From a virus (taxonomy: Duplodnaviria > Heunggongvirae > Uroviricota > Caudoviricetes), in IMG/VR virus record IMGVR_UViG_2548876856_000015: DNA of 8,645 nt. One strand, given 5' to 3'. Below, piece after piece: positions 3,745 to 6,625 of the stretch. Both the position numbers and the translations under genes were made by a program. Under the pieces are notes generated by a model that worked only from the letters and a program-made list of their open reading frames with translations, ran no database searches and was not told the origin of the DNA. Positions within the stretch are counted from its first letter, which is position 1; every line of letters begins with the position of its first letter.

Positions 3745-4437
3745 TTAATTATGTCTCTTAAGGGTTTGCGACTGACTGATTAAGACCTTTCCAAAGACCA
3801 TGAATCGGTGTTCGTTTTCGCTAGTAATTCCCCATTCACGGTAAATCTGGTTATCAGAAATCACCAGCAGTTTGTCAGGAATCATTTGAAGTCTTTTAAC
3901 GTATATTTTGTCATCAAAACCAAAGACATATATACCATCACCATCAAACTGATTGATGCTGACATCAACGAAGATGAGATCTCCTGGCTCAATGGTTGGA
4001 CACATACTGTCCCCACGAACGTTGATAACTTTGATGTGATTGGCTGGTCGTCCGCCGAACATTGATACAGCATTATCAGTTCTGTATTCGATGGCATGAA
4101 TCACATCAATGACATCACCGCCTTGGATAAGGCCATTTCCCGCACTGGCACTGATATCCAGCATTTCAATACGGAACACATCCTTCACCTGCGCAACATC
4201 CTCATTATTACTGTTTTTATATACAGTATTACTTTTGTGGGCAGAGGTAAAGAGATCAGCAATATCAACACCTAAGCTCTTGGCAATATTACTCAGTGTT
4301 TGTTCGGTAAATTGTTTTTGCTTACCCGTTTCTAAGCGCGAGATGTTCGCCGCATCTACTCCTATTGCTTCAGCGAGATCGGCGATTTTCATGTTCTTCG
4401 CTTGGCGAAGTTGTCTGACTCGGTTTCCTATGTTCAT
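3745..4437 (-). CDS. cI: cI-like prophage repressor (N-terminal HTH + C-terminal S24 LexA-like autopeptidase domain)
   Basis: 230 aa. N-terminal HTH_XRE-type segment VRQLRQAKNMKIADLAEAIGVDAANISRLETGK. C-terminal GDSMCPTIEPGDLIFVD (Ser nucleophile) and YVKRL (Lys) match the S24 family. Divergent from the cro-like gene. Confidence 0.9.
   Translation of the reverse strand: MNIGNRVRQLRQAKNMKIADLAEAIGVDAANISRLETGKQKQFTEQTLSNIAKSLGVDIADLFTSAHKSNTVYKNSNNEDVAQVKDVFRIEMLDISASAGNGLIQGGDVIDVIHAIEYRTDNAVSMFGGRPANHIKVINVRGDSMCPTIEPGDLIFVDVSINQFDGDGIYVFGFDDKIYVKRLQMIPDKLLVISDNQIYREWGITSENEHRFMVFGKVLISQSQTLKRHN
4209..4228. promoter_or_regulatory. LexA (SOS) box-like palindrome inside the cI coding sequence
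   Basis: TACTGTTTTTATATACAGTA matches CTGT-N8-ACAG with an AT-rich spacer and TA flanks; about 18 of 20 positions agree with the E. coli consensus TACTGTATATATATACAGTA (from memory). Only CTGT-N8-ACAG match found in a manual scan of the window. Confidence 0.4.
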
Positions 4438-4534
4438 GCGTTTATTACATTTCTTTATTGCGTGATAAGCAAATCAACTTGCGCAAAATAATTGCGTGAA
4501 ATAACATGCATAACGCGCAATATTTGGAGGTTAT
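4438..4534. promoter_or_regulatory. Divergent cI/cro promoter-operator region (OR-like)
   Basis: 97-bp intergenic region between the divergent cI and cro starts. Contains TTGCGTGATAAGCAA (4458-4472), the palindrome TTGCGCAA (4479-4486), TTGCG at 4492, and ATGCATAACGCGCAA (4506-4520; TTGCGCGTTATGCAT on the other strand). GGAGG at 4526-4530 precedes the cro ATG. Confidence 0.55.
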
Positions 4535-4795
4535 ATGCAATCACTATTACGAAATGTGCGTAAGGCGCATGGTTTCACTTTGCAGCATGTTGCTGCGGGT
4601 GTTCAAGTCAATCCAGCGACGTTGAGTCGTATTGAGAGGCTGGAGCAGATTCCATCTATCGAGCTTGCAGAACGTTTAGCCAATTTTTTTAAGGGTGAAG
4701 TCAGCGAAATGCAGATTCTTTATCCGGCACGTTTTCAATCTAGCCAAAACCAGAATGGGTTTAAACCACAGGAACAGGAGGTGAACCGTGGGTAA
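4535..4795 (+). CDS. cro: Cro-like HTH (XRE-family) regulator
   Basis: 86 aa. HTH segment GFTLQHVAAGVQVNPATLSRIERLEQIPSIELAERLANFF. First rightward gene, divergent from cI. Stop TAA at 4793-4795 overlaps the next gene start. Confidence 0.8.
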   Translation: MQSLLRNVRKAHGFTLQHVAAGVQVNPATLSRIERLEQIPSIELAERLANFFKGEVSEMQILYPARFQSSQNQNGFKPQEQEVNRG

Positions 4796-5339
4796 GCATC
4801 ACTGGAAAGTAGAAAAACAGCCTGAGTGGTACGTGAAAGCTGTCAGAAAAACTATCGCAGCGTTGCCGGGGGGTTACGCTGAAGCTGCTGACTGGCTGGA
4901 TGTAACAGAGAACGCATTATTTAACCGCCTTCGTGCCGATGGCGATCAGATTTTCCCGCTGGGATGGGCAATGATTTTGCAACGTGCTGGTGGAACTCAC
5001 TTCATTGCTGACGCTGTGGCGCAGTCTGCAAATGGCGTCTTTGTGTCTCTTCCTGATGTCGAGGATGTGGACAACGCCGATATCAACCAACGCCTGCTGG
5101 AGGTCATTGAACAGATCGGCAGTTATTCAAAACAGATTCGTTCAGCAATTGAAGACGGTGTAGTGGAACCGCATGAGAAGACAGCAATTAACGACGAGCT
5201 GTACCTCTCAATTTCGAAGCTGCAGGAGCATGCAGCACTGGTCTACAAAATTTTTTGCATTTCAGAAAGTAATGACGCCCGCGAGTGTGCAGCTCCGGGC
5301 GCCGTGGCGTGTCGTGACTGTGGAGAAACTAACGCATGA
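4788..5339 (+). CDS. CII-like phage regulatory protein (function tentative)
   Basis: 183 aa. GTG start at 4788 with AGGAGG at 4776-4781. Sits in the lambda cII position after cro. The sequence recalls the longer 'phage regulatory protein CII' family; this is from memory, not verified. Stop overlaps the next ATG (ATGA at 5336-5339). Confidence 0.5.
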
Positions 5340-5674
5340 ATAGTTTAACAACACACTACCGTCGCTCGCAACTGATTGCGCTTCCTGTACCGGGTGGAAA
5401 AGCGAAGGTGGAGTATTGCTATGCAGTAAATGTACCAGGTGGCAGGGTAATTGTAACCCACAGCTTTGCAGAGTGGGCTGTGGGTGATTTTAACCGGCAA
5501 AAGGAGACAGTCCTTTGCGACAAGTTAACCGCTGGTTCAAAGATCACTACGGAGTACCCGTCAGAGTCATTCGTTGGGAGCCGGAAACACAACGGGTTAT
5601 CTACCTCCGCGAAGGCTATGAGCATGAATGCTTCAGTCCGCTCGAAAAGTTTCGTCGTAAATTCAGGGAAATAG
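5336..5674 (+). CDS. Hypothetical protein; the reading frame appears to lose coding character in its 3' half
   Basis: 112-aa ORF. The N-terminal ~55 residues look protein-like ([52 protein letters not shown]). The remainder is Ser-rich and low-complexity, while a different frame over the same DNA looks protein-like. Confidence 0.35.
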
Positions 5675-5694
5675 AGGTCGGTCATGAGCACTAA
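5515..5694 (+). CDS. Alternative-frame small ORF (about 59 aa, TTG start), or the C-terminal part of a frameshifted gene
   Basis: The frame open from 5494 to the TAA at 5692-5694 encodes ...[64 protein letters not shown] at 5501-5506 lies 8 nt before TTG 5515. Its stop overlaps the O-like ATG at 5684. Confidence 0.3.
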
Positions 5695-6625
5695 ATTAAC
5701 CGGCTATGTATGGGATGGTTGCGCAGCGTCAGGCATGAAATTATCCAGCGTGGCAATTATGGCACGCCTGGCTGATTTCAGTAATGACGAAGGTGTGTGC
5801 TGGCCATCAATTGAAACCATTGCCCGCCAGATTGGCGCGGGGATGAGTACCGTCAGAACGGCTATCGCACGGCTGGAAGCAGAAGGCTGGTTAACGCGTA
5901 AGGCGCGTCGCCAGGGTAACCGCAATGCGTCGAATGTTTATCAGCTTAACGTTGCGAAGCTTCAGGCTGCGGCTTTTTCTCAACTGTCAGATTCTGACCC
6001 GTCAAAATCTGACGCATCAAAATCTGACCCGTCAAAATTTGATGCGTCGAAATCTGGCAAAAAAGCGGGTTTTCACCCGTCAGAATCTGGCGGGGATCCG
6101 TCAGTAAAATCAAAACATGATCCGTCAGATAAAAAAACTTCTCGTCCGGACGCTTCGCAACCGGACACGCAGACGGCTGAACAGGATTTTTTAACTCGCC
6201 ATCCTGATGCGGTTGTATTCAGCCCTAAAAAGCGCCAGTGGGGGACGCAGGATGATTTGACCTGCGCACAGTGGCTCTGGAAAAAAATCATCGCCCTGTA
6301 CGAGCAGGCTGCCGAATGTGACGGCGAGGTGGTTCGTCCCAAAGAACCGAACTGGACAGCCTGGGCAAACGAAATTCGCCTGATGTGTGTGCAGGATGGT
6401 CGTACTCACAAACAAATCTGCGAGATGTACAGCCGCGTCAGCCGCGATCCGTTCTGGTGCCGTAACGTGCTCAGCCCGTCGAAGCTGCGGGAAAAATGGG
6501 ATGAGCTTTCCCTGCGCTTATCGCCGTCCGTAAGCACGTACACCGAAAAACGCGAAGACCCGTACTTCAAATCCAGTTACGACAATGTGGACTACAGCCA
6601 GATCCCGGCAGGATTCAGGGGGTGA
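5684..6625 (+). CDS. Replication initiator protein (lambda O-like; N-terminal winged-helix/HTH domain; ori iterons inside the gene)
   Basis: 313 aa. N-terminal HTH segment SVAIMARLADFSNDEGVCWPSIETIARQIGAGMSTVRTAIARLEAEGWL. Internal 5-aa periodic low-complexity region encoded by tandem 15-bp DNA repeats. Position after the cII-like gene. SD GAGG at 5675-5678. Confidence 0.7.
   Translation: MSTKLTGYVWDGCAASGMKLSSVAIMARLADFSNDEGVCWPSIETIARQIGAGMSTVRTAIARLEAEGWLTRKARRQGNRNASNVYQLNVAKLQAAAFSQLSDSDPSKSDASKSDPSKFDASKSGKKAGFHPSESGGDPSVKSKHDPSDKKTSRPDASQPDTQTAEQDFLTRHPDAVVFSPKKRQWGTQDDLTCAQWLWKKIIALYEQAAECDGEVVRPKEPNWTAWANEIRLMCVQDGRTHKQICEMYSRVSRDPFWCRNVLSPSKLREKWDELSLRLSPSVSTYTEKREDPYFKSSYDNVDYSQIPAGFRG
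5987..6061. repeat. Five tandem 15-bp direct repeats (candidate ori iterons), followed by a CCGTCAG repeat family and an A-rich tract to about 6136
   Basis: Repeats: TCAGATTCTGACCCG, TCAAAATCTGACGCA, TCAAAATCTGACCCG, TCAAAATTTGATGCG, TCGAAATCTGGCAAA. CCGTCAG recurs at 6077, 6098 and 6122. GATAAAAAAAC at about 6128-6138. Confidence 0.6.

Follow-up and report, generated by a model that had tools for sequence, protein, structure and literature searches.

Out-of-frame overlapping, or overprinted, genes are known from phages, with lambda Rz/Rz1 and phiX174 as examples; stop/start overlaps such as ATGA and TAATG give translational coupling in operons; and programmed -1 frameshifting is known from dnaX and from the phage tail chaperones G/GT. 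In the present study, we analysed a stretch of viral DNA of 8,645 nucleotides (nt; IMG/VR record IMGVR_UViG_2548876856_000015, hereafter the window), which is an e14-type lambdoid prophage of Escherichia coli, and followed up a break in reading frame between its cII-like gene and its O-like replication gene. Two open reading frames (ORFs) lie there on the same strand, a ymfM-type ORF of 112 codons (frame A) and a DUF4222 gene for a protein of 59 residues (frame B), and they have 160 nt in common (5515-5674), A being read in the +1 register of B. The comparisons described below make it very probable that these are two genes sharing 5515-5674 in different frames, i.e., a conserved out-of-frame overlap of ymfM and DUF4222 of about 160 nt, and for each of the two, as judged from aligned relatives, selection appears to go beyond what the partner frame demands.

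Both parts have close described relatives. Frame A is the same ORF as ymfM of the e14 prophage in E. coli K-12 (b1148, 'cell division inhibitor YmfM'): both have 112 residues, the nt sequences are about 97% identical, and in K-12 too the ORF stands between ymfL and the replication gene. Its homologues of 112-117 residues reach down to 46% identity. Frame B belongs with the DUF4222 small prophage proteins, and the NCBI Prokaryotic Genome Annotation Pipeline (PGAP) uses that name for it; it matches the whole Pfam DUF4222 model (PF13973) at 66.1 bits (cut-off 27), its residues 2-53 falling on model positions 3-52 of 53. The first-pass annotation had described a frame discontinuity here, and all of the features it listed are present, namely ATG 5336, a frame that is open from 5494 onward, AAGGAG and TTG 5515. 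Among the four explanations that it offered, the one of two overlapping genes is strongly supported by the two-frame layout, which is shared by all 239 of the distinct related loci, drawn from a wide range of enterobacterial genera.

These loci come from a collection of 326 DUF4222 loci in genomes and viral contigs, each anchored on a DUF4222 profile, of which duplicate removal left 279 distinct sequences; a first scan of IMG/VR had given near-identical sequences only and was repeated with three divergent queries. The 239 loci are the distinct ones whose +1 register has 33 or more open codons before B, and they include three divergent N-terminal types (103, 64 and 43 loci). In every one of them frame A stays open to +160 to +172 nt, that is, to B codon 53 or just beyond; the sense +2 register of the same loci carries 1-7 stops in 237 of the 239. 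Within the overlap the third codon position of B is the second position of A, and from this geometry a stop in frame A arises solely where a B codon NTA or NTG (N, any base) stands before a codon starting with A or G. With the B protein held fixed and with the codon usage of the flanking genes, the expected openness of frame A is 0.02-0.17 per sequence (28 representatives below 88% nt identity). A synonymous shuffle inside B gave P values of 0.05-0.88 and had weak power, because B is already depleted of the risky codons, and we therefore relied on the local background codon usage and on tree-based counts instead.

Codon choice in B depends on the base that follows. Val16 is encoded by GTC in 63 of 63 cases before AGR or AAA (R, purine), with GTA or GTG in 32 of 132 before CGN; Ile19 never takes ATA in an at-risk context (0/53), as against 32 of 130 cases otherwise; before an A, Val18 and Val28 always have GTY (Y, pyrimidine), and residue 4, either Val or Leu, never has NTR. 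At positions that are not at risk, ATA is found at Ile29 (114/195), CTG at Leu31 (87/195) and GTA or GTG at Val14 (37/115). On a neighbour-joining tree of 195 distinct B genes, analysed by Fitch parsimony, the synonymous changes at Val and Leu codons before an A comprise 26 from pyrimidine to pyrimidine and 0 from pyrimidine to purine, and those before a G comprise 11 and 0, compared with 22 and 22 for the same residue types before C or T (Fisher p = 2.7e-6; 7e-8 with the G class added). In the flanking genes of the same loci, GTA or GTG makes up 45% of the Val codons before an A, and NTR 71% of the Leu codons, so there is no general codon-pair avoidance. Furthermore, in one locus where DUF4222 follows an antirepressor gene (L330), the +1 register holds 5 stops (GTG-AAT, GTG-ATA, CTA-ATA-ATA, ATA-G), and in a distant subgroup a stop stands in the frame-A register at +94; the avoidance is thus tied to the overlap and not to DUF4222 itself. 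By this comparative evidence, frame A is NEVERTHELESS kept open and stops are excluded from it by selection.

These figures also bear on the view that the locus has no real genes besides DUF4222 and a short one upstream, in which case the long frame A would be a shadow ORF owing its openness to chance, composition or shared ancestry. It draws on three observations: the amino acids of the A tail are not conserved, frame A is not called by PGAP, and the antisense frame, a known artefact, is likewise open in 225 of the 239 loci when aligned by codons. However, the antisense frame does gain stops, in 14 of the 239, and frame A gains none, although its openness is expected at only 0.02-0.17. The dependence of codon choice on context, the tree counts (0/26 versus 22/44), the five stops in the uncoupled DUF4222 gene of L330 and the flanking genes, which show no codon-pair avoidance, all speak in the same direction, and we consider a shadow ORF quite improbable.

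Gene B is shown to be a real, independent gene under ordinary purifying selection on its amino acids. Its homologues form 114 clusters from Escherichia, Salmonella, Klebsiella, Enterobacter, Citrobacter, Kosakonia, Providencia and further genera. Of 195 distinct main-family genes, 161 start with ATG and 28 with TTG, and in 226 of the 239 distinct loci of the main family a motif resembling a Shine-Dalgarno (SD) sequence stands before the start. In the e14-type population, nucleotide diversity (pi) in B is 0.001 at codon positions 1 and 2 versus 0.046 at position 3, and the predicted fold of the protein is confident. DUF4222 is also found without an overlapping upstream ORF, and in three phage records the point at which DNA similarity sets in (query positions 181-187) is at most a few bases from 5515, so that B behaves as a separate module. 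Two stops just upstream (Table 1) mean that frame B cannot be a continuation from further upstream. In the titles and abstracts of the DUF4222 literature, an overlapping partner frame is not described.

The same stops narrow down the programmed frameshift that had been put forward as an option. In this scenario ribosomes would slip from A to B by -1, thereby fusing the N-terminal domain with DUF4222; the geometry fits, B being the -1 frame of A, and rare database ORFs of 102-119 residues join both parts. The stops in frame B, however, leave 5494-5514 only for the shift, and this 21-nt window (frame A codons CGG CAA AAG GAG ACA GTC CTT) contains no slippery X XXY YYZ heptamer in frame A. Nor was a stimulatory structure found: the fold of 5470-5580 has z=-1.4, no hairpin is common to 13 representative loci, and Rfam gave no match. 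In addition, B has its own conserved SD and start, and the further 160 nt over which frame A stays open would be left unexplained. The fusion ORFs themselves join at different points, form tiny clusters and come mostly from read assemblies. The option is hence without support, and we hold it to be highly improbable. A small hairpin pairing the SD of B with the bases before TTG was also considered and dropped, its z again being -1.4 and its pairing not conserved in 12 other lineages.

The fused ORFs also deserve a word in their own right. P0031, P0051, P0060 and P0063 (102-119 residues) have four different junction points and stand in clusters of 1-14 members; fused ORFs of the N-terminal domain and DUF4222 are probably indel variants or assembly errors. 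An uninterrupted ORF over both parts was not found as an intact ancestral form among the 239 distinct loci, all of which have the two-frame layout.

That layout leaves hardly any room for the two remaining options of the first-pass annotation, a frameshift mutation that turned one ancestral gene into a pseudogene and an indel error in reads or assembly, both of which had nothing but the first impression of a frame break in their favour. Seven complete E. coli genomes carry the 601 nt of 5200-5800 with 100% identity. Of 5426 E. coli genomes, 2700 match them, with coverage of at least 80% in 1932 genomes (1936 records). The locus is present in K-12 and in about half of the sequenced genomes of the species. 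The same arrangement recurs in Klebsiella, Enterobacter, Citrobacter, Kosakonia, Pantoea and other genera, fused ORFs are rare, and both halves exist as independent genes elsewhere. Among the ALTERNATIVES, sequencing error and pseudogene are accordingly both ruled out, the former and the latter alike, by the fact that genomes agree and that the layout is conserved, and we give them practically no credence.

Frame A itself consists of two unlike halves, in line with the earlier remark that it turns Ser-rich after about 55 codons. When its homologues, which reach down to 44% identity, are aligned, the 19 invariant columns all fall within residues 1-50; Cys61 is conserved in more than 90% of sequences, and no conserved column follows it. 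AlphaFold gave a predicted local distance difference test (pLDDT) score of 62-80 for residues 1-66, with a beta-beta-beta-alpha-alpha pattern in the N-terminal domain, and below 50, without secondary structure, for residues 68-112. Ser accounts for 11 of the last 52 residues, and a tail rich in Ser, Thr, Ala and Gly is seen across the enterobacterial lineages. The N-terminal domain follows an ordinary coding pattern (pi 0.005 at codon positions 1 and 2 versus 0.041 at position 3) and also occurs as complete stand-alone proteins of 59-78 residues: an Entomohabitans prophage has a ymfM-like version of 78 residues followed directly by the replication gene, DUF4222 being absent between them, and another contig has one of 73 residues followed by an antirepressor gene and then DUF4222. 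Residues 15-53 of the domain gave weak repeated matches to large Y_Y_Y/Ig-like repeat proteins (P0214, P0216, P0219, P0227, P0230), which may reflect a common beta-hairpin motif or chance.

The tail behaves quite differently from both the domain before it and the gene that it overlaps. Among 45 divergent loci of the same N-terminal type, identity is 85% for B, 59% for the N-terminal domain and 50% for the tail, although the tail is read from the DNA of B. Within the e14 type (38 haplotypes), 11 of the 52 tail residues vary, against 5 out of 59 for the N-terminal domain and 2 out of 59 for B, and the 12 segregating sites of the overlap fall on frame A positions 1, 2 and 3 as 0, 10 and 2. Four-fold diversity at the B sites of the overlap is 0.054, compared with 0.074 for the N-terminal domain, 0.036-0.041 for the replication gene and 0.095 for ymfL, and no reduction of B-synonymous variation, as amino-acid constraint on the overprinted frame would produce, was detected in these 38 haplotypes. 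The tail residues appear to be essentially unconstrained and to drift freely, because a synonymous third-position change in B is a second-position change in A. The first-pass annotation would have given up its discontinuity had homologues conserved the 112-residue frame end to end and not the alternative one; the outcome is divided, as frame A is open end to end in homologues, but the amino acids of its second half are not conserved, and those of the alternative frame are highly so.

What, then, keeps a freely drifting tail open? The preferred answer takes DUF4222 as the older coding frame and the ymfM tail as an overprinted read-on, with selection acting on the passage of ribosomes. They would move from ymfL to ymfM through the ATGA overlap (ymfL TGA and frame A ATG, 5336-5339), would be carried by frame A over the DUF4222 gene in the +1 register, and would be freed by the frame A stop at the ribosome-binding site of the replication gene; an open frame A may thus let an inserted small gene leave the coupling unbroken, the disordered tail being a tolerated by-product. 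This relay is favoured by four observations. First, the junction cgcATGAAC, with its ATGA overlap with the cII-like gene, is found in 205 of the 239 loci. Second, in 207 of the 239, including the window, the frame A stop comes 9 nt ahead of the replication gene ATG, with which it is in frame. Third, the stop is written into B codon 53: in 172 of 194 distinct B genes this codon is NTA (ATA, TTA, GTA or CTA) and the next base is A or G. Fourth, where a ymfM-like gene does not stand directly before DUF4222, it has 73-78 residues and its end overlaps the start of the next gene. At both ends of frame A, a stop lies at or a few nt from the next start, as translational coupling asks (ATGA; 9-nt spacing). 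On the strength of these alignments, it is most likely that selection protects translation through to the replication gene.

Two observations on the same signals may be added. The string cgcATGAAC (window 5333-5341; L003-L327) is kept though the flanking cII-like gene and N-terminal domain differ, and it looks like a module boundary used in recombination. At the other end (5672-5686), TAG stands three codons from the in-frame ATG of the replication gene, where read-through would fuse YmfM to the initiator.

The serious alternative to coupling, and the main one, is that the overlap is the same and the tail is needed in YmfM itself in a sequence-insensitive role, as a disordered linker, a degradation tag or a solubility region; nonsense changes would then be removed since the truncated protein misbehaves, and not for the sake of coupling. 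Stop avoidance and the fixed end point agree with such a role, and so do the predicted disorder and the Ser/Thr/Ala/Gly-rich composition across enterobacterial lineages. On the other hand, the N-terminal domain is complete at 59-78 residues without any tail, B-synonymous variation is not detectably reduced, and phages of a Providencia type encode a very different, hydrophobic peptide in the same register. We regard a needed tail as possible but rather unlikely.

The Providencia-type phages call for a closer description. In L197-L216 (about 1201-1384), the third frame carries the upstream gene, whose end, TAATG or TGATG, overlaps a +1-frame ATG that lies 7 nt after the DUF4222 start; the resulting ORF of 55 codons has a hydrophobic N-terminus (MKTQIILIGCIWISVVFVF...), spans DUF4222 and ends 4-5 nt before the next gene. 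Risky codons are avoided in this DUF4222 gene too. Such an open frame fits the relay but could be inheritance, and is suggestive only.

Several points weigh against the relay through frame A. The loci are related, and the parsimony counts lessen their non-independence but do not remove it. For gene A including its tail, the evidence consists of stop avoidance and the conserved stop position, and the latter coincides with the ribosome-binding site of the replication gene (TAGAGG or TAAAGG), which could itself conserve TA[AG]. The start of the O-like gene sits between the stop of A and that of B, so B too ends there, its TAA (5692-5694) reaching 8 nt beyond the ATG at 5684; and the distant subgroup has B alone at the replication gene start, with frame A closed, from which it follows that coupling through A is not universally needed. 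Finally, the +1 frame of the Providencia-type group is open without the N-terminal domain, and as a single lineage this has P of about 0.02-0.035.

The overlap has a direct bearing on SfiC, a division inhibitor that is inducible by the SOS response. In a preprint by Ansari et al. (bioRxiv 10.1101/2020.11.19.390815), e14 ymfM was reported as SfiC: the ymfM 'open reading frame' in pBAD24 led to filamentation and loss of Z rings, and a ymfM deletion lowered SOS filamentation in a sulA background; the available portion of that paper makes no mention of a second frame. The cloned 339 nt, however, include the AAGGAG and TTG of B and 53 of its 59 codons, i.e., the whole Pfam domain, and the ymfM deletion takes out both frames. 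In two papers on earlier screens, the active fragment was mapped no finer than ymfL'-ymfM-ymfN'. With a clone and a deletion that carry both frames and with such coarse mapping, these data do not establish the SfiC polypeptide, which may be YmfM or the DUF4222 product. A bolder combination, namely that the +1 frame is a ribosome conduit that does not serve for its peptide and that the division block comes wholly or partly from the DUF4222 protein, we put forward as tentative and, taken as a whole, doubtful. Our literature search found no paper that pairs ymfM with ribosome profiling.

Existing annotations reflect the two-frame nature of the locus in a fragmentary manner. The K-12 record annotates ymfM without the DUF4222 frame, and the PGAP genomes annotate frame B alone, with nothing called in 5340-5514, so each of these references omits a gene backed by comparative data. 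Phage records differ, with frame A in some, frame B in others and an antisense ORF in two (MK416017, ON470608). The latter, annotated as a coding sequence of 90 residues at 5419-5691 on the minus strand, opposite DUF4222, is most probably no gene but a shadow ORF. In PHROGs, the 112-residue ORF, its first 63 residues and the 59-residue protein each have a family of their own, and no NCBIfam model matches protein A or protein B.

The features of the region are collected in Table 1. The gene order of the prophage is integrase, excisionase, cI-like repressor, cro-like helix-turn-helix gene, ymfL, the A/B region, the O-like replication gene, a PerC-family gene and a RusA-family gene. A scan of 5200-5800 against Rfam gave no match, and a promoter and terminator scan of 4400-5800 found none on the plus strand inside the region.

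Table 1. Coordinates of the ymfM/DUF4222 region in the window (position 1 is its first letter).
Feature	Positions	Strand	Remarks
ymfL	4788..5339	+	cII-like regulator, 183 residues; Pfam PF06892 Phage_CP76, E=1.5e-13; PGAP name 'protein YmfL'
Frame A, ymfM-type ORF, 112 residues	5336..5674	+	from the ORF list; ATG 5336-5338, 112 codons, then TAG 5672-5674; K-12 b1148; phrog_1170 matched end to end
Frame A N-terminal domain, residues 1-60	5336..5515	+	upstream of B save one common base, 5515
Frame A tail, residues 61-112	5516..5671	+	Ser-rich, predicted disordered; the +1 reading of gene B
Frame B stops, TGA 5485-5487 and TAA 5491-5493	5485..5493	+	read from the sequence
AAGGAG, SD of gene B	5501..5506	+	8 nt before TTG 5515
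Frame B, DUF4222 gene, 59 residues	5515..5694	+	TTG start; ends with TAA 5692-5694
Frame A stop, TAG	5672..5674	+	formed across codons 53 (ATA) and 54 (its G) of B
GAGG, probable SD of the O-like gene	5674..5677	+	inferred from position alone; covers the last base of the A stop
O-like replication initiator, 313 residues	5684..6625	+	Pfam HTH_36; weak DnaD_N match

The O-like gene goes under replication protein O or primosomal protein in phage records. Within it, at window positions 5972-6094, a unit of 15 nt (TCAAAATCTGACCCG-like) recurs every 15 nt in 5-6 copies, and related copies continue to 6133, encoding a repeated DPSKSDASKS peptide; by analogy with lambda, these repeats look like origin iterons in an initiator gene. 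Elsewhere in the window, on the minus strand at about 2603-2922 (L001 2604-2923), PGAP marked a hypothetical coding sequence as frameshifted (pseudogene) in an identical genome record.

Set beside the described systems, the locus would join the overprinted phage genes, its unusual trait being an overprinted frame that appears to be guarded against stops only. Like Rz/Rz1 and phiX174, it has two same-strand frames over a long stretch, an inner gene with its own start, and a younger frame that is odd in composition and predicted to be disordered. Unlike them, the overprinted part is here a C-terminal extension of the upstream gene and not a nested gene, stops are excluded without amino-acid constraint, and divergent N-terminal domains are all joined to the tail. 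More generally, a long overlapping frame guarded in this way offers a natural case that separates selection for translation and length from selection for sequence. With dnaX and G/GT it shares two frames in a -1 relation to the upstream ORF, but it has neither slippery heptamer nor stimulator, its downstream frame initiates by itself, and its upstream frame runs about 53 codons further. With coupled operons it shares the ymfL-ymfM ATGA junction and the A stop 9 nt before the next ATG and inside the ribosome-binding site of that gene; unlike in those, the proposed coupling would span a whole independent gene in another frame, an arrangement for which we know of no described precedent.

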